25,315 nucleotides of DNA, from contig JAWCSL010000011.1 of the NCBI GenBank assembly GCA_039090665.1, positions 1 to 25,315 on the forward strand, given 5' to 3'. The notes beneath the pieces are model-generated. The model had not been told where the DNA came from. It saw only the letters and a list, made by a program, of their open reading frames with translations, and ran no database searches. Below are positions 7,314 through 25,315 of this stretch, one piece after another (within the stretch, counting starts at the first letter, position 1; each line of letters opens with the position of its first letter). The position numbers were made by a program, and so were the translations under genes. Origin of the DNA: Candidatus Aenigmatarchaeota archaeon. Its GTDB lineage: Archaea > Aenigmatarchaeota > Aenigmatarchaeia > CG10238-14 > SCSR01.

Positions 7314-7427
7314 ATGAATGAAATCGCAAGAATTCAAATCTCGTTTTTGATGGATAGAGGAATTAAAAAAGTTAGAACAAACATAGTTGCTGGGAGTAGA
7401 ATTTGGGGGTCTCTCAAAGTTTTATGA
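7314..7427 (+). CDS. Putative 37-aa microprotein (not in ORF track)
   Basis: MNEIARIQISFLMDRGIKKVRTNIVAGSRIWGSLKVL; strong SD AGGTGA overlapping the upstream stop; followed by a T-run. Confidence 0.5.
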   Translation: MNEIARIQISFLMDRGIKKVRTNIVAGSRIWGSLKVL

Positions 7428-7464
7428 ATTTCTTTTTTTAAAAAAAAAATTCAAATTGATTTGT

Positions 7465-7992
7465 ATGAAGATGTTTTTAGATATAGAGTGCACCAACATA
7501 AATGCAGATATTGGACAAATAACAGCAGTTGGTATAATTAAGGAGGATAAGAGAGAAGTAAAGTTTGTTGGAAGTTTGGAAGAAGAAAAAGAAGTTTTGA
7601 ATTGGCTTAAAAAGGAACTGGAAAATTGTGATTTAATAATAACTTGGTATGGGTCCAAATTTGATATACCTTTTATTCTCACACGAGCTTTAATCAATAA
7701 TATAGACATGAGCAAACTGCTTAAAATTCCTTCTTTGGATCTTTGTGAATTTTGTAAAAGAAATTTTTTGTTCAGTAAAAACAATTTATCAGAAATTTCT
7801 AAATCTCTTAACATACAAAAAAACAAAGAAATAAGTGGAAAAGATGTTCTTCGATTATACATAAAAGCTCTTAAAGGTGATAAAAAAGCTAGGGAAGAAA
7901 TTATCAAACATTGTTTGGATGATCTTGAAACTCTAGAAAAAATTTTCAAAAAACTTGAGCCTTATTTAAGTCTAACTACAAAAAACCCATGA
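7465..7992 (+). CDS. RNase H-like DEDD 3'-5' exonuclease (YprB/RNase_H_2-like)
   Basis: FLDIECT, TWYGSKFDIPFI, HCLDDL motifs; start moved to ATG 7465. Confidence 0.85.
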   Translation: MKMFLDIECTNINADIGQITAVGIIKEDKREVKFVGSLEEEKEVLNWLKKELENCDLIITWYGSKFDIPFILTRALINNIDMSKLLKIPSLDLCEFCKRNFLFSKNNLSEISKSLNIQKNKEISGKDVLRLYIKALKGDKKAREEIIKHCLDDLETLEKIFKKLEPYLSLTTKNP

Positions 7993-12563: not shown

Positions 12564-12650
12564 GGGGTTGTCGTCTAGCTTGGTCTAGGACACGAAATTT
12601 GGTGGAAGCCTCGGGCGCTCGCAACCTGGGTTCAAATCCCAGCAACCCCA
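12564..12650 (+). tRNA. tRNA-Pro(CGG) with a 12-nt intron at non-canonical position 29/30
   Basis: Acceptor GGGGTTG/CAACCCC+A; D-arm GTCT...GGAC; removing 12596-12607 restores stem CGAGC/GCTCG with loop CT-CGG-GC; T-arm CTGGG-TTCAAAT-CCCAG. Confidence 0.92.
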
Positions 12651-16415: not shown

Positions 16416-16949
16416 ATGGTAAGGTGTTTTATTGGTTATATTTTGCCACAGGATATAAAAACCAAAATAGCCGAACTTCAGAAAAAAATTGAGACTTGGC
16501 CATTAAAATGTAAGTTTGTTGAAAAAGAAAATTTACACATTTGTTTTTCATTTTTGGGTGAAATTAAAGAAATGGAAATAGAAAAAATTTCAGAAAAAAT
16601 AAACATAATCTCAAGAAAAAATAGAAAAGTTGAAGCCATAATCAATGGTTTAATTGCTATTCCAAACCCTAATTACATTAGAGTTATTGCACTTAAAATT
16701 GTTGAAAGTAATAGCTTGAAACAAATTTTCTCAGATATAGTAAAAGAAATAGGTGGTGATTCTAAGCCTGCCCATATAACTTTGTGTAGAGTAAAATATG
16801 TGGAAAATAAGAATGAATTAAGAAGGAAGATTGAAGAAGAGAATAAAGAGCATGGTACACTTAAAATTGAAGCAATTCAACTAATAAAAAGTGAGCTAAA
16901 GAGGAGTGGTCCTGTTTATTCAATAATTCATCAAGCTGAGCTTTCTTGA
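16416..16949 (+). CDS. thpR: RNA 2',3'-cyclic phosphodiesterase / 2'-5' RNA ligase (2H family)
   Basis: MVRCFIG, ENLHICFSFLGE, PAHITLCRVK, KSELKRSGPVY; start moved to ATG 16416. Confidence 0.9.
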   Translation: MVRCFIGYILPQDIKTKIAELQKKIETWPLKCKFVEKENLHICFSFLGEIKEMEIEKISEKINIISRKNRKVEAIINGLIAIPNPNYIRVIALKIVESNSLKQIFSDIVKEIGGDSKPAHITLCRVKYVENKNELRRKIEEENKEHGTLKIEAIQLIKSELKRSGPVYSIIHQAELS

Positions 16950-17809
16950 TGAGTTTCTTCAATAAACTCTTTTAAGTCTTTTGCTTTTGTTTCGATTTTA
17001 TATTGTTCTGCTGGAATTTTGTTCCTCAAAGCTTTGAAAATTTCTTTTTTTGTAAGTTCTTCTACTTCTTTTTCAGGTGGTGCTTTTGCTATATAATCTA
17101 TTTCAGAAACTTGGAGCATTTCTTTAATTATTAAATCTCCTCCCCTATCACCGTCTACAAACAATGTAGCTATTTTTTCTTTTGTCAAATCAATTATTGC
17201 TTGAGGTATTTTCACACCTTCAATTGCTATCACATTTTTGATTCCGTTTTTTAGAAGATTTAGAACGTCTGCCCTCCCTTCAACTATTATTATTTCTTCT
17301 GACTTTTCTATATCTGGACCAGCAGGTAATCCACAATAATCTTTTATTTGAGATGTTTTCACTTCTTCTTTTATTATATTTGTAAGAGTAGAAGTTGGAG
17401 GTATTTCTTCTGTCATAAGTTTTCCTAAAATATCTTTTGCTCTGTTTAGCATAAACTCTCTTTTCATGGATCTTACATCTTTAACGGAACTCACTTTAAT
17501 TTTTGCTTCACAAGGACCTATTCTTTCTATTGTTTCTAGCGAAGCTGCAATTAAAGCAGTTTCAGAACTATCTAAACTTGAAGGTAGAAAAATCTTTCCT
17601 TTTGTTTTTCCTTCTTCATTTGAAATTTCCACATCTATTCTACCTATTCTACCTGTCCTTTGCAGCTCCCTCAAATCCATGTCTTGACCTAAGAGCCCTT
17701 CCGTTTGACCAAATATAGCACCTATCACGTCTGGCTTTTCTACTATTCCTTCTACTGAAAATTCTGCTTCTATTAAATATTTTGTGGTAGATTGAGCAAG
17801 TTTTCCCAT
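16931..17809 (-). CDS. dnaG: Archaeal DnaG-like protein (N-terminal domain + TOPRIM), short
   Basis: VEKPDVIGAIFGQTEGLLG, DLRELQRTGRIGRI, VEGRADV, DGDRGG; SD GGAGG upstream of ATG 17809. Confidence 0.95.
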   Translation of the reverse strand: MGKLAQSTTKYLIEAEFSVEGIVEKPDVIGAIFGQTEGLLGQDMDLRELQRTGRIGRIDVEISNEEGKTKGKIFLPSSLDSSETALIAASLETIERIGPCEAKIKVSSVKDVRSMKREFMLNRAKDILGKLMTEEIPPTSTLTNIIKEEVKTSQIKDYCGLPAGPDIEKSEEIIIVEGRADVLNLLKNGIKNVIAIEGVKIPQAIIDLTKEKIATLFVDGDRGGDLIIKEMLQVSEIDYIAKAPPEKEVEELTKKEIFKALRNKIPAEQYKIETKAKDLKEFIEETHQESSA

Positions 17810-18170
17810 TTTGATCATCCTCCATTAATTTCGTGAAAGAGTTTAATTCCTCAATTTTGTTAATTTTTAATGATTTGATTTTCTTCCGGATGAAATAATT
17901 TAATTTAATTTTGTAAAGAGATAAGAGGTTTGAAAGATTGATAGCAATTTTTTTCCCTTCATCATCAAAATCAGTAAGAATCGCAACTTCAGTCGGATTA
18001 AAAGAAATAACTTCTTCAACAACCTTTTCTAGACTTTTTCCTGAGATTCTTACAATATTCTTAAACCCAAAATATCGCAAGGCTTTTTCATCCTTTTTTC
18101 CTTCAACTATAAGTAAAGCTTCTTCCTTTTTCAATTCTTCTAATACTTCAAAAGCTTTTGGAGAAAGCAT
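17649..18170 (-). CDS. Small TOPRIM-domain protein with a read-through tail overlapping dnaG
   Basis: IVEGKKDEKAL and ILTDFDDEG TOPRIM motifs. Confidence 0.85.
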   Translation of the reverse strand: MLSPKAFEVLEELKKEEALLIVEGKKDEKALRYFGFKNIVRISGKSLEKVVEEVISFNPTEVAILTDFDDEGKKIAINLSNLLSLYKIKLNYFIRKKIKSLKINKIEELNSFTKLMEDDQNGKTCSIYHKIFNRSRIFSRRNSRKARRDRCYIWSNGRALRSRHGFEGAAKDR

Positions 18171-20586: not shown

Positions 20587-20670
20587 ATTGTTCAAAAGCA
20601 AAAATAATTTTTATATCTTTGATGAAATAAAATAAATACACTGTGTAATTTGAAAACAAAAGTGAGAAAC

Positions 20671-21021
20671 ATGAACAAACAAGAAATTATCCTTCCTTTG
20701 AAAGAAAGTTTGGGGTCAAAAAAAGAATTGGCTTCAATTTTCCTAAATTTCGATATAATAACAATCAGGATCTTACAAAAGTTTTACTTTAACAAAGATT
20801 TTCCAAATGATGTTAATTCTTATTATATTCAACAACTTCTTTCTGAGCTAAAAAGTGAAGGACTAGAAATAAATTTAGAAACTTTGAGAAAAAGATTGGA
20901 AAATTTAGTGAAATTGAATTTGATTGAAAAAGTTGAAACATATCCAAGAATATATATGCCTGTGAGAGATGTAGAAAAAATAAGAAGTTTTTTGATAAAA
21001 GTTAAAGAACTATTTTTATGA
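20671..21021 (+). CDS. Winged-helix DNA-binding protein
   Basis: YIQQLLSELK...INLETLRKRLENLVKLNLIEKVETYPRIY (HTH + wing); ATG 20671. Confidence 0.72.
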   Translation: MNKQEIILPLKESLGSKKELASIFLNFDIITIRILQKFYFNKDFPNDVNSYYIQQLLSELKSEGLEINLETLRKRLENLVKLNLIEKVETYPRIYMPVRDVEKIRSFLIKVKELFL

Positions 21022-21104
21022 AGTTTTTGAAAAATTTTCAACTGAAATATATATAAGGTTTAGATTTTTTTCTCATCAAGTTTATTTAACAGACAAATTA
21101 TTAC

Positions 21105-21306
21105 TGCAAACATTTTCTTTTTTGTAAAAAAATTTAAATTTTTTCTTCTTCTCCCCTTTCAAAATTCCAATTTTTCATTTAATACCCTTTTATTCAATTT
21201 TACAAACATTTGTTTTATCGCATTTATAATAAAATGTTTGCACTTTTAGATAAATGTTTGCACTTTTCAGAGAATGTTTGCAGAAATGAAGAAAAAAATG
21301 CAAACA
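21105..21306. repeat. Array of TGTTTGCA motifs: three direct copies at a 20-bp period plus inverted copies
   Basis: Forward at 21235, 21255, 21275 (first two extend to AAATGTTTGCACTTTT); reverse TGCAAACA at 21105 and 21299; one-mismatch TACAAACA at 21201. Confidence 0.85.
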
Positions 21307-21337
21307 CTTTTAAATTCGTTCCTTCTAAGATAAATTT

Positions 21338-21571
21338 ATGCCTCGAAAACCTTTTGGTAAGTTTTTTGAAGTAGCTCTTTTAAGTTGTTTGGATCCCGAA
21401 ATTCCTAAAACATCTGAAGCTATAAGAAGAGCTTTAGCTGAAAAACTAGATAGACCAGGACTTTCTTGGCATACTGTGAACAAATATCTTTGTTTTCTTC
21501 GTGATGCAAAAAAAGTAGAGGAAATTCGTATAGGTAAAGTCACAACTTACAAGTTAAGAAAACAAATTTAA
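21338..21571 (+). CDS. Small winged-helix protein (77 aa)
   Basis: PKTSEAIRRAL...LSWHTVNKYLCFLRDAKKVEEIRIGKVTTY. Confidence 0.8.
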   Translation: MPRKPFGKFFEVALLSCLDPEIPKTSEAIRRALAEKLDRPGLSWHTVNKYLCFLRDAKKVEEIRIGKVTTYKLRKQI

Positions 21572-21594: not shown

Positions 21595-21852
21595 ATGAAA
21601 AGAGGAAGAAAAAGTTTGAGAGATGAAGTTAAATCAAAAATTTTGGAAATCCTTTCAAATACTCAAACCCCACTTACTATTTCTTCAATAAAAATGCTGA
21701 TTTTTGAAAATTTCAATAGGAACTTTAGTTGGAACACAATTCAAAAATATTTAAATGAACTTGTTGAAGAATCTAAAATTATTCCTATTCATCTACCTCA
21801 TTCAAGGTTAAAAGGAAAAACTGGTCTTACTGTTTATATATTAAAAAGATAA
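21595..21852 (+). CDS. Small winged-helix protein (85 aa), probable paralog of the upstream gene
   Basis: KILEILS...PLTISSI...FSWNTIQKYLNELVEESKI...TVY. Confidence 0.82.
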   Translation: MKRGRKSLRDEVKSKILEILSNTQTPLTISSIKMLIFENFNRNFSWNTIQKYLNELVEESKIIPIHLPHSRLKGKTGLTVYILKR

Positions 21853-21870
21853 TAATTTTCTTTGATTTTT

Positions 21871-23013
21871 ATGAATCGAGAAAAAATTTTAGAAATTTTC
21901 ACAAAAAATAATTTGTTACTAGATCCAAAGGCTTTAGAGTTTTTTATTCAAAATTCAAGCCAAGTGGAAAGTTTTTTGGAAAAAGTTAAAAAACTTGAGA
22001 GACAGCCTGTTATAATCACTCTTGATTTTGTCAAATCTTTAGAAAAATCTTATGAAATAGAGGAAATCAAAAAAGATGGAGCAAAGAAAACAACTTTATC
22101 AATTGAAGATCTTTCAAACTTTTTGGTAGAAAGATATGAAAAAATTAAGTCATTTTTTTCCTATAGATTGGATGTTGTTAATTTGATTTCAATAAACAAA
22201 ATAAATGAAAAAACAAAAAAATTTTCCCTTATAGTTATGGTTAGGGAGATTGATAGAGAAAACAAAATTGCTTTTGTTGAAGATCTAACTGGTGAAATAT
22301 CTGTACGTGTTCTGAATGATTTAATTGATTTTTTGGTTCAAGATGAGGTTGTTGGACTTTTTTGTGAGAAAAAAGATGAAGAAATTCAAGTTACAAATGT
22401 TTTCTGGCCGGATATACCTTTGAAAAGAACAATAGGAAAGCTAGAAGAGGATATTCTTTGCTTGTTTGTTTCAGAAGTTGCTTTTGAAGAAAATTATGAA
22501 GAAATTCTCAAAGAGATAAGCAAACTGAATTTTAAATTTTTGTTTATTTTTTTGTTTTTGAACAAAATCCTTGAAGAAAAACTTAAAGTGTTTAAAGAAA
22601 AAATACCACCAAACTCTAAACTTGTTTTGATAAGCAATGCGAAACAAAACTTTGATGATATTTTGTGTTTTTCAAGTCCAGCTTTTTTAGTTTTAGATAA
22701 AAAAATTGTATTTTTGCTAGTTGACGGAAAAATTTTTTCAAACTACAAAAATCTTGGAAAAGATTGTGTAGAGATAATGTTAAATTTACTTAAAAAAAGA
22801 CATTTGAACCCAATCTTTAAAATTGAAAACTTGAGCTTAGAAGACCGCTATTTGGTAGACCCAATTCCAGACATATTTGTTTCAGCAAATTTCGGTAATT
22901 CTTCTTTAATCAATTATAAAGGAACTACAATCATTTCTTGTGGATCTTCAGAAAAGTTGTTTTGGATTGTGAATCTTAAATCACGAGAAAATTTAAAAAT
23001 CAGTTTAACATAA
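21871..23013 (+). CDS. Inactivated homolog of DNA polymerase D small subunit DP1 (B-subunit-like)
   Basis: DP1-like N-terminal helix (EIFTKNNLLLDPKAL), OB fold (ERYEKI, VMVREI, EDLTG, DEVVG, WPDIP), LLKKRHLNP, PDIF, YKGT. Metal ligands are absent: SDIH is replaced by SEVA and GHVH by ANFG. Confidence 0.85.
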   Translation: MNREKILEIFTKNNLLLDPKALEFFIQNSSQVESFLEKVKKLERQPVIITLDFVKSLEKSYEIEEIKKDGAKKTTLSIEDLSNFLVERYEKIKSFFSYRLDVVNLISINKINEKTKKFSLIVMVREIDRENKIAFVEDLTGEISVRVLNDLIDFLVQDEVVGLFCEKKDEEIQVTNVFWPDIPLKRTIGKLEEDILCLFVSEVAFEENYEEILKEISKLNFKFLFIFLFLNKILEEKLKVFKEKIPPNSKLVLISNAKQNFDDILCFSSPAFLVLDKKIVFLLVDGKIFSNYKNLGKDCVEIMLNLLKKRHLNPIFKIENLSLEDRYLVDPIPDIFVSANFGNSSLINYKGTTIISCGSSEKLFWIVNLKSRENLKISLT

Positions 23014-23021
23014 GAATAAAC

Positions 23022-25315
23022 ATGGAAGTAAATTTTCAGCTTTTAGATGTTGATTATATTTTTCTAGAAAATCGTCCTATTATTAGGCTTATTGGAAAAA
23101 CAGAAGAAGGAAAAACTGTTTGTGCATTTTACGATGGTTTTTACCCTTATTTTTATGTTCTTCCAAAAAGGGATATGGAAGATAAAGTAATTGAAGAATT
23201 AAAGAAACATTTTAATGGAGATGTTAAAAACATAGAAAAAGTAGAAAGATTTTTGCCGATTGGTTTTCAAGAAAAAAAGAAAGAAATGTTAAAAATAACA
23301 TTAAAAGATCCATCTAAAACAGCAAATGTAAGAGAACATTTAAGAAAACAAGATTTTGTTGAAGATGTTTTTGAGGCAGATATTCTTTTCAAATACAGAT
23401 TTATGGCAGACTTCTCGCTTTTTGGAATGAATTGGTACAAAGTATATGGTACACCTATCCACACGCAGAATGTGAGAGCCGATCAAATAATCAAAATGGA
23501 AAAAATTGAGCCACTAGAAAAAATAGAAAATGCACCACTTAAGTACTTGGCTTTAGATATTGAAGTTGTTTCGAAAGGTTTGGTAGATCCTCAAGAAAAT
23601 CCAATAGCGATAATAAGTATGGCTTTTTTCCCAGCTTTTAATGGAAAAAATACAATTGTTTTAGTTGCAAAGAATAACATGAGAAGAATTGATAAAGATG
23701 TGTTAACTTTTAGCAGTGAAAAAGAAATGCTTGAAAAATTTTTAGAAATTGTTGAAAGATTTGATCCTGATGTTATTGTTGGTTATAACATTAACGATTT
23801 TGACATACCTTATATAAACGAAAGACTTAAAATCAATAAGTTGAGAAGAACATTAGGAAGATGTAATGAAAAACCACTTTCTTCAAGAAAGTTAGCTGAA
23901 AACAGATATAAGAACTCTATTTTTGGAAGAGTGATAGTAGATCCATATTGGATGATAAAAGACATGGCAAGTAGGGGTTTTTTCACAGGGCTCAAGAGAT
24001 TTGGTTTAGGAGATGTTTCTAAATATCTTTTAGGTGAAGATAAAATAGAATTTTCTCATGCTGATATGCCCCTTGCTTGGAACGGAAGTGAAGAAGATAT
24101 GAAAAGATTTATTGATTATGCGAGGAAAGATTCAGAACTTGTTTTAAGACTGCTTCTAGAAAAACAGTTTTTAGATAAATATATAGGAATTTCAAAAGTT
24201 TCAGGTTTACTTTTACAAGATTCTCTGGATACTGGAGAAGCTGGTAAAGTAGAAAATTTACTCTTAAGGGAATTCAATAAAGATGGGTTTGTTCTTCCTT
24301 GTAAGCCAACTGAAAAAGAAATTGCAAGAAGAAAAGCCGAAAGAGATGTTAAAGGGTTTAAAGGGGCTTTCGTCTTAGATCCGGAAGTTGGTTTACATAC
24401 AAATTGTGTAGTTTATCTAGATTTTGCATCAATGTATCCATCTATTTTTATTTCTTATAACATTTGTCCAACAACTCTTTTGATAGAAAAAAGAGATGAC
24501 ATAGAAGCAATAACAACACCTTTTGGTACTTCTTTTGTACCCCCACATGTAAGAAAAGGAATAATACCAAGAACACTTGAAAGGCTAATAAAAGAAAGGA
24601 ATATAATCAAGGCTCAAATGAAAAATGAAAAAAATGTGGAAAAGAAAAGGGCTTTAGATGCTTATCAAGAGGGTTTGAAAAGAATAGCGAATGCTTCTTA
24701 TGGCTACACAGGATTTCTTTTAGGCAGGATTTATGTTTTGAATATAGCAAATGCAATAACAAGTTGTGGCAGATATTATATTCAAGAAACAAAGAGATTA
24801 GTTGAAACAAACACAAAATATAAGGTGATTTATGGAGATACAGACTCTGTTATGATAAAAACGGATACACAAGATATTGATAAAGCGATAGAAATTGGCA
24901 ATCAAATTGCAAATTTCTTAAATGAAAAATTCGAAGGTAAGCTTAAAATTAAAGTAGAAAATATATTTAAAACACTTTTAATTTTGACCAAAAAAAGATA
25001 TGCTGGTTGGAGTTTTGAAAAAGTCGATTCTGAGTACAAAGATGAAATTGTGATGAAAGGAATAGAAACAGTTCGTAGAGATTGGTGTGATTTGGTTAGT
25101 GAAACACAAGAAGCAGTTTTAAACATTTTACTTAAAGAACAAAATCCGAGAAAAGCTTTCAACTATTTTAAGGAAGTAGTTCAAAAACTACAAGCTGAAC
25201 AAATTCCATTAGAGAAGCTAGTCATAATAAAAGGGATTTCAAAAAGACCAGAAGAATATAAAGGAGTACAACCTCATATTGAGCTTGTGAAAAAAATGAA
25301 GAAAAGAGGAGAAAC
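23022..25315 (+). CDS. polB: Family B DNA polymerase with Pol delta-like motifs; 3' end outside window (not in ORF track)
   Basis: Open frame from ATG 23022: ExoI LDIE (23556), ExoII GYNINDFD, ExoIII YARKD, motif A DFASMYPS (24420), motif B KRIANASYG, motif C YGDTDS (24831), KKRYAG, KGIETVRRDWC. Confidence 0.97.
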   Translation, partial: MEVNFQLLDVDYIFLENRPIIRLIGKTEEGKTVCAFYDGFYPYFYVLPKRDMEDKVIEELKKHFNGDVKNIEKVERFLPIGFQEKKKEMLKITLKDPSKTANVREHLRKQDFVEDVFEADILFKYRFMADFSLFGMNWYKVYGTPIHTQNVRADQIIKMEKIEPLEKIENAPLKYLALDIEVVSKGLVDPQENPIAIISMAFFPAFNGKNTIVLVAKNNMRRIDKDVLTFSSEKEMLEKFLEIVERFDPDVIVGYNINDFDIPYINERLKINKLRRTLGRCNEKPLSSRKLAENRYKNSIFGRVIVDPYWMIKDMASRGFFTGLKRFGLGDVSKYLLGEDKIEFSHADMPLAWNGSEEDMKRFIDYARKDSELVLRLLLEKQFLDKYIGISKVSGLLLQDSLDTGEAGKVENLLLREFNKDGFVLPCKPTEKEIARRKAERDVKGFKGAFVLDPEVGLHTNCVVYLDFASMYPSIFISYNICPTTLLIEKRDDIEAITTPFGTSFVPPHVRKGIIPRTLERLIKERNIIKAQMKNEKNVEKKRALDAYQEGLKRIANASYGYTGFLLGRIYVLNIANAITSCGRYYIQETKRLVETNTKYKVIYGDTDSVMIKTDTQDIDKAIEIGNQIANFLNEKFEGKLKIKVENIFKTLLILTKKRYAGWSFEKVDSEYKDEIVMKGIETVRRDWCDLVSETQEAVLNILLKEQNPRKAFNYFKEVVQKLQAEQIPLEKLVIIKGISKRPEEYKGVQPHIELVKKMKKRGE

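Follow-up and report, generated by a model that had tools for sequence, protein, structure and literature searches.

A phased array of repeat boxes before the replicative polymerase operon of a Candidatus Aenigmatarchaeota archaeon as a probable autoregulatory operator

The DNA analysed (the window) was an entire contig of 25,315 bp (JAWCSL010000011.1, contig C3) from an assembly of a Candidatus Aenigmatarchaeota archaeon (DPANN; GCA_039090665.1, referred to as G000: 15 contigs, 620,606 bp, 90.6% complete, ~66% A+T). In this window, a 316-bp gap between genes (positions 21022-21337) carries a regularly phased array of the 8-bp box TGTTTGCA and lies directly before a four-gene operon: two genes for small winged-helix proteins (P0002 and P0003), a gene for a homologue of DP1, the small subunit of PolD (P0004), and a gene for a family-B DNA polymerase (PolB). 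On the evidence given below, the gap is probably an autoregulatory operator array for the polymerase operon (rough probability 0.6), a reading that fits better than a replication origin. Gene maps were our own crude open reading frame (ORF) maps, and promoter elements were read by eye. The features of the locus are as follows (window coordinates, strand, description):

20650-21021, + strand: P0001, winged-helix protein; ORF from TTG 20650, likely start ATG 20671; the gene end is the left edge of the gap
21013-21035, + strand: TTTTTATGAAGTTTTTGAAAAAT, a candidate box of ancestral type that overlaps the stop codon of P0001 (21019-21021)
21105-21112, - strand: distal inverted TGTTTGCA box, exact match
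21113-21200, no strand: A/T-rich spacer (80.7% A+T), not exceptional for the genome
21201-21215, no strand: degenerate copy TACAAACA (7/8) within the near-palindrome AAACA-TT-TGTTT (21204-21215), read from the sequence
21235-21282, + strand: three direct boxes (A)AATGTTTGCA(C) at an exact 20-bp period
21299-21306, - strand: promoter-proximal inverted TGTTTGCA box, 16 bp past the third direct box and 2 bp upstream of the TATA-like element
21308-21315, + strand: TATA-like element TTTTAAAT, read from the sequence, centred ~26 nt before the P0002 ATG and 2 bp downstream of the last box
21338-21571, + strand: P0002, 77-aa winged helix with the recognition helix SWHTVNKY, predicted reader of the TGTTTGCA boxes
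21595-21852, + strand: P0003, 85 aa, N-terminal MKRGRP followed by a winged helix (Pfam TBPIP winged helix, E 8.6e-5)
21862-23013, + strand: P0004, DP1 homologue by family profile, a B-subunit-like partner of PolB
23022-25313, + strand: family-B DNA polymerase, truncated by the contig end (Pfam DNA_pol_B, E 4.8e-100; exonuclease domain, E 1.5e-33)

The preliminary description of this DNA had reported TGTTTGCA three times at an exact 20-bp period, with an inverted copy 16 bp after the third, and these were found on the + strand at 21235, 21255 and 21275 and, inverted, at 21299-21306. The self-similarity of the three direct boxes (35/50 at a shift of 20) was reached by 0/200 shuffles. Two further inverted copies had been proposed: the one at 21105 is exact, and the one at 21201 was rejected as a sixth box, since it matches at 7/8 positions only and belongs to a separate near-palindrome. 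The window holds 7 copies of TGTTTGCA, compared with 1.40 expected, and 0/100 dinucleotide shuffles reached 7. Genome-wide there are 58 copies, of which 10 are intergenic on the crude ORF map, with 5 of these 10 inside this gap; the remaining five intergenic copies are singletons with unrelated flanks, and no second intergenic TGTTTGCA cluster was found anywhere in the 620-kb genome. Because five of the ten intergenic copies sit in this one gap, the cluster is a dedicated site and not a regulon, and a spread of the motif over many promoters, raised earlier as an argument against an origin, was not found.

When the gaps of the genome were ranked, this gap came first, a CRISPR-like array set aside, for the count of a repeated 8-mer, stood second of 158 for phased self-similarity, and tied for first among 155 for copies of a 12-mer (6 copies at ≤2 mismatches). 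The array set apart in that count, G000:C1:80817-83132, is a non-coding stretch of 2.3 kb with ~31 repeat copies and is most likely a CRISPR (clustered regularly interspaced short palindromic repeats) array. The length of the gap is ordinary: the claim that it was unusually long for the window failed, as it is one of four gaps of at least 316 bp in the window and about mid-rank among the 107 genome gaps of at least 200 bp. Between the copies at 21105 and 21235, which match as complements at 93% over 15 nt, lie 108 nt of A/T-rich DNA, and the inverted boxes bracket 108-120 nt of ~81% A+T. The spacer between 21113 and 21200 had been called very A/T-rich, which its composition bears out, but its ease of melting is unexceptional: 142 genome regions contain 80-bp windows at least as meltable as the most meltable window of the gap (starting at 21023).

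At the left edge of the gap, TTTTTATGAAGTTTTTGAAAAAT resembles by eye the phased box TTTTTATGAACTTTCAGAAAAT of a relative (locus L031, genome G030) and may be an ancestral-type box; it is T-rich, so it may simply be the terminator of P0001. A scan for sigma-70 promoters and terminators, which does not apply to archaea, gave no enrichment. In four DNA contig sets, the pieces covering the gap were identical or one letter apart, and so offered no natural variation for footprinting the boxes.

The genes downstream of the gap are packed at intergenic distances of 23, 9 and 8 nt (P0002-P0003-P0004-PolB), which leaves room for an operon promoter in the 316-bp gap only. P0002 starts 32 nt after the last box, so that the sites are immediately followed by a winged-helix gene of DNA-binding type. 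From the known layout of archaeal promoters, the position of the TATA-like element would give P0002 a leaderless or short-leader mRNA. A box close to the start codon and downstream of the TATA element is the usual geometry of archaeal autorepression. In loci of relatives where P0003 is the first gene, the motif TCATA[AG]AA occurs 11-39 nt before the P0003 ATG, downstream of TATA-like runs, in 12 of 19 cases (background: 1.4% of 45-nt windows).

The preliminary description had the flanking genes as winged-helix genes and not cdc6, and structure models agreed. P0002 gave a canonical winged helix (predicted local distance difference test, pLDDT, 87), with the DNA-binding domains of Fur, PerR, ArsR, HxlR and PadR as nearest folds in the Protein Data Bank (PDB). 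The AlphaFold model of P0001 (pLDDT 77) shows three helices and a beta hairpin, with additional N- and C-terminal helices; its PDB fold neighbours are weak and all transcription-factor-like, with TubR among the weak ones. Transcription of P0001, and of the genes that precede it, runs towards the gap. P0002 and P0003 align as paralogues, P0003 being the phylum-wide one.

The recognition helix of P0003 (SWNTVQKY) is almost invariant, the SWNT core being present in nearly all members, and mean column identity was 63% in an alignment of 22 sequences from 22 genomes. Its N-terminal MKRGRP is, we take it, an AT-hook-like motif. The family has 453 members of ~85 aa, named, where names are given, 'hypothetical protein' or by a generic predicted function. 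Beyond the marginal TBPIP winged-helix match, no Pfam or NCBIfam assignment was obtained for the P0002/P0003 family, and the P0003 profile found nothing below E 1 among PDB sequences. Across loci L021-L049, P0003 is the better conserved of the two proteins, with 41-80% identity to the window copy vs 28-70% for the DP1-like protein. P0003 may be a regulator only, or may also be a part of the replicase; a predicted complex of P0004 with P0003 scored 0.01, which did not reach the mark and carries no weight either way.

The family profile of P0004 matched solved DP1 structures (E 4.8e-32) and Pol delta small subunits (E 0.005), and P0004 itself matched the NCBIfam DP1 model at E 1.6e-25, a score that falls short of the equivalog cut-off. 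In this genome, at 90.6% completeness, no DP2 was found. The polymerase operon proposed earlier is therefore present, as a DP1-like gene with PolB and not as DP1-DP2: judged by homology, it is the known eukaryote-like replicase of Aenigmatarchaeota and not PolD.

Relatives retain both the genes and the arrays. A homologue of P0004 was found in 53/60 related genomes. In the 30 loci retrieved, tblastn placed P0003 immediately before the DP1-like gene in 25 cases and P0001 farther up in 23, and four additional P0001 genes were read as ORFs in the loci of relatives. In many loci, ~300 bp of non-coding DNA precede the first winged-helix gene. Phased self-similarity at 18-23 bp reached p≤0.01 against shuffles in 17 of 27 orthologous upstream regions, although in one of the 17 (L034) the signal is owed to a 10-bp microsatellite. 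In an 802-kb contig of a relative, the orthologous gap ranked first of 129 for phased self-similarity. Among same-genus and near relatives (L021, L022, L023, L025 and L028), T(T/C)GCA boxes recur at 20 bp and the spacers have diverged; a counterpart of the distal inverted box, GTGC(A/G)AACATTT, is retained in L021, L023 and L025, and the promoter-proximal inverted copy is also found in L028 and partly in L021. The arrays of relatives hold 3-5 boxes at 19-22 bp, and more distant relatives carry boxes of the TATGAAC-TTTCA/TTCCAA type at 21-22 bp. Where other genes have been inserted, the arrays remain with the first gene of the operon. Loss of the repeats from orthologous loci, which had been named as grounds for doubt, was thus not seen.

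In four loci of distant relatives (L038, L044, L046 and L047), a palindrome, TATAACAATGTTATA, is conserved at the centre of the gap upstream of P0003, within ~130 bp of A/T-rich core DNA. The inverted arms of this core differ between genomes yet stay complementary, for example GGCAGGTGGCGACG / CGTCGCCGGCTGCC in L046.

To ask which protein the boxes serve, the boxes within 300 nt upstream of the operon's leading winged-helix gene were sorted by type and set against the recognition helix which that gene encodes. The 6 loci with a SWHT helix had a mean of 3.8 T(T/C)GCA-type and 0.3 CATA-type boxes, and the 18 loci with a SWNT helix a mean of 0.1 and 2.1, respectively, the CATA-type boxes reading T(T/C)CATA. 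Because box sequence and recognition helix change together, the conserved boxes, putative functional protein-binding sites of a non-ORB type (ORB: origin recognition box), are most likely read by the neighbouring winged-helix protein. The covariation thus suggests a small winged-helix protein, and not the conserved Orc1.

A second array of similar design was found in the same genome (G000:C11:45196-45516, locus L135). It consists of five co-oriented AACTCT(C/T)ACTTT boxes, the last of them 28 nt from the start of a gene for a 217-aa protein with a C-terminal winged helix-turn-helix (wHTH), beside the S-adenosylmethionine synthetase gene, and it is syntenic in a relative of the same genus (G006:C1:206898-207670). 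The least stable duplex DNA of the genome lies at this array (C11:45118-45658). The second array may be an alternative origin candidate, or another autoregulated promoter. Elsewhere in the genome, the divergent promoter region between two wHTH genes at G000:C14:2636-3023 contains several direct repeats and a perfect palindrome of 30 bp, GCTTAGCTATGCATATATGCATAGCTAAGC; the flanking 210-aa gene (nuclease-like N-terminus and wHTH) has paralogues inserted in the polymerase operon of L022 and L035.

As an operator array, the gap would be the control region of the operon P0002, P0003, DP1-like gene and PolB, which would supply the replicative polymerase, and the TGTTTGCA boxes would be operators for P0002, encoded right behind them. 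The three direct boxes, two helical turns apart, would lie on one face of the DNA, with one inverted box at the TATA-like element and the distal inverted box ~130 bp further up. P0002 would bind cooperatively, perhaps looping the DNA, and would set the transcription of its own gene and of the polymerase genes. The binder, the position of the promoter and the sign of the regulation are predictions from sequence, and repression would be a guess.

Seven observations favour this operator: the box cluster is unique to this locus; the gap is the sole room for the promoter, with a TATA-like element 2 bp past the last box; the best PDB neighbours of P0002 are DNA-binding domains of transcription factors; an array of like design precedes an unrelated winged-helix gene of the genome; boxes change type with the recognition helix of the leading winged-helix protein; TCATA[AG]AA is start-proximal in 12/19 of the P0003-first loci; and the phasing is kept in orthologous loci, where the arrays accompany whichever gene leads the operon. 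The preliminary description had proposed an origin recognised by the neighbouring wHTH proteins, and a multi-site operator of the polymerase operon as the alternative. The reader that it named is the most likely one, given the covariation; the step from there to an origin was not sustained, and its alternative fits better.

Several observations weigh against the operator. The start-proximal box is missing in 7/19 loci, and 10/27 orthologous regions miss p≤0.01 for phasing. All six SWHT loci belong to one clade, so that the covariation of helix and box is a single evolutionary event. A second rank of 158 here and a first of 129 in the relative denote much structure for one promoter. In several distant relatives, 200-300 bp separate the arrays from the start codon downstream, and an A/T-rich core with flanking inverted repeats lies between these arrays and the remote core promoter, an arrangement that looks more origin-like.

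The closest precedents for an operator of this kind are Ss-LrpB of Sulfolobus and MDR1 of Archaeoglobus, autoregulated winged-helix regulators with several regularly spaced operators at their own promoters. The present locus shares with them a small wHTH gene right behind 3-5 boxes at whole helical turns and a motif essentially unique to its own locus; judged from the sequence, it may also share a box that abuts or overlaps the transcription factor B recognition element (BRE), the TATA element or the transcription start site. It differs in that the P0002/P0003 family (77-85 aa) has no Pfam or NCBIfam home beyond the marginal TBPIP match, the regulated operon would encode a replicative polymerase, a distal inverted site lies ~130 bp upstream, and binding is predicted only.

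A chromosomal origin, or an element that is both origin and operator as in iteron plasmids, is unlikely, and is the alternative that survives best. Here P0002/P0003, or Orc1, would read the phased boxes as iterons, MCM would be loaded at an A/T-rich unwinding tract between the inverted boxes, and the module might be inherited from the mobile element presumed to have introduced the B6-type PolB. In its favour, an A/T-rich gap of ~300 bp is kept in a very compact genome (~11% intergenic on the crude ORF map), inverted boxes lie around A/T-rich DNA, distant relatives have co-varying inverted arms around an A/T-rich palindrome core, and in two genomes the gap stands at or near the top of the ranking for phased repeats. 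The A/T-rich tract is nevertheless ordinary, the least stable DNA of the genome being at the other array, and P0001 with its upstream genes is transcribed towards the gap.

Origins of the ORB type often include a G-string, and their adjacency to orc1/cdc6 is usual, not obligatory. ORB and mini-ORB boxes share a conserved TTCC...GAA core bound by Orc1/Cdc6, and in Pyrococcus the order is oriC-cdc6-dp1-dp2, as given in passages of PMC1904270. Our locus is similar in having boxes of both orientations around A/T-rich DNA upstream of a DP1 gene, with a layout conserved within the lineage, and its position upstream of DP1 parallels the Thermococcales oriC-cdc6-dp1-dp2 order described in those passages, which speaks for an origin. 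Against this, the gap contains no TTCC-N4-GAA core and no G-string; the preliminary description had already given the motif as no match to canonical ORB and as lacking a G-string. The box sequence, moreover, varies between genera and follows the small winged-helix paralogue instead of Orc1, and orc1/cdc6 is on another contig in a tight operon. The GTTCCAA-type half-boxes of relatives were considered as the TTCC half of an ORB and were dropped, as the GAA half is not at the right distance.

The location of orc1/cdc6 and a search for ORBs elsewhere had been proposed as checks, and both were carried out. The single orc1/cdc6 gene is at C8:26315-27379, and in 5 relatives, too, it is on another contig than the polymerase locus. 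In 6/6 genomes examined, it is embedded in a tight operon with no adjoining gap and no repeats in its flanks. TTCC-N4-GAA mini-ORB cores gave 197 scattered matches in G000, with no 300-bp window containing 4, and thus no canonical ORB cluster. Because there is neither a gap adjacent to orc1/cdc6 nor a mini-ORB cluster, the chromosome origin is still unplaced, which leaves room for an origin at the present gap. No published origin for this phylum turned up in literature searches.

The skew check that had been suggested was run on contigs of two relatives, G030:C1 (800 of 802 kb) and G006:C1 (258 kb), with GC skew, AT skew and strand-corrected GC3 skew. No turn of skew or gene orientation was found at the locus in either contig. 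This counts little against an origin: there was no replication skew anywhere in G030:C1 or G006:C1, where raw skew tracks gene orientation, so the test is blind in this lineage. Contig G006:C1 also begins with a giant gene, a single ORF of ~39 kb on the + strand (~1-40000).

In iteron plasmids, the Rep initiators (RepA of pPS10, RepE of F and pi of R6K) have two winged-helix domains and ~250-350 aa. The gap has the repeat feature of such replicons (at least three phased direct repeats of ~17-22 bp) in its three exact boxes at 20 bp, and, as in these replicons, the repeats stand beside an inverted copy at the promoter of a winged-helix gene, near an A/T-rich tract. In contrast, P0002 (77 aa) and P0003 (85 aa) are single domains, and the locus lies in the chromosome, with ribosomal, FtsZ and Kae1 genes around it.

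WhiP resembles Cdt1 and has two winged-helix domains. Among the top 50 fold neighbours of P0002, there was no winged-helix chain from Cdt1/WhiP or Orc1. The Sulfolobus origin oriC3 is specified by WhiP, a non-Orc1 winged-helix protein (PMC3607249); the shared idea is an origin specified by such a protein encoded next to it. The single 77-85-aa domains of P0002 and P0003, with transcription-factor-like folds, lack the second winged helix of Rep or WhiP/Cdt1-type initiators. The array fails the features of ORB-type origins for which it was tested (core and orc1/cdc6 adjacency) and has no two-domain Rep initiator as iteron origins do. A wider proposal, in which the gap would be the origin, or one of the origins, of Aenigmatarchaeota, with iteron-like boxes, in place of ORB/Orc1, read by the AT-hook/winged-helix family, an origin-reader-polymerase module that may have come with the mobile element of the polymerase, and boxes that also throttle the promoter, seems doubtful to us.

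Still less probable is a chromatin- or centromere-like filament, nucleated at the boxes, along which the winged-helix protein would spread, like AspA or ParR/TubR, in chromosome organisation or segregation. Sites phased on one helix face would suit such a filament, as would the strong conservation of P0003 with its AT-hook-like N-terminus, the presence of TubR among the weak fold neighbours of P0001, and faint, non-significant matches of P0003 to models of Sso10a-type chromatin proteins (E 0.046). No ParA/SegA-type ATPase is found in or beside the operon, however, there is one cluster per genome, strictly tied to the polymerase operon, and promoter control better explains the start-proximal box.

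A small structured RNA, or a recent tandem duplication without function, is very improbable: the + strand of the gap folds somewhat better than shuffles (z -2.46, 1/100 as good, the fold being driven by the inverted boxes), but the - strand does not (z -0.61), an Rfam scan of the gap found no family (best match E 0.74, far below threshold), and boxes kept between relatives while spacers diverged disfavour both neutral duplication and a conserved RNA sequence.

Contig C3 is chromosomal and carries FtsZ, Spt5, ribosomal proteins L11, L1, L10 and P1, fibrillarin, Nop5, Kae1, Hel308, Toprim proteins and Hjc. Despite these core informational genes, its G+C content is 30.9%, compared with 32-36% in the remaining 14 contigs. 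At 16931-18170 on the - strand, two adjoining, overlapping ORFs (295 aa and 173 aa) each contain a Toprim domain; a DnaG-type primase gene may have been split or duplicated here, or a frameshift may account for the pair. The tRNA gene at 12564-12650 probably contains an intron, since the match covers 87 nt on a 71-position model. A stand-alone RNase_H_2 / PolB-exonuclease-like protein of 201 aa is encoded at 7387-7992, apart from the polymerase gene.

The two last genes of the operon correspond to a known pair. According to passages of PMC7544198 and PMC12680538, the Aenigmatarchaeota replicase combines a B6-type PolB carrying a DP2-like C-terminal domain with an inactivated DP1, the two interacting in yeast two-hybrid assays; this PolB has taken the place of the catalytic subunit of archaeal PolD, and no prokaryotic system comes closer to the Pol alpha/delta architecture than the PolB-DP1 pair. 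The term inactivated is taken from these passages and reaches P0004 itself by homology only. In passages of PMC7544198 (Kazlauskas et al. 2020), the Aenigmatarchaeota PolB is suggested to come from a mobile element, a point that would suit the origin proposal. The passages of PMC7544198 and PMC12680538 on this replicase make no mention of upstream winged-helix genes or phased boxes ('winged' occurs 0 times in PMC12680538); set against them, three features are seemingly new: the winged-helix gene that constantly leads the operon, the AT-hook-like N-terminus of its product, and phased boxes that co-evolve with it.

The replicase operon is thus led by a small, conserved AT-hook/winged-helix protein (25/30 loci) and preceded by a conserved phased array that co-evolves with the leader protein. 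If the gap were an origin, it would provide a determinant of a non-Orc1 type in a phylum without a placed origin. If it is an operator, as we favour, it would be a transcriptional switch dedicated to the replicative polymerase of an archaeon that depends on a host, and would give a handle on how replication is coupled to conditions.

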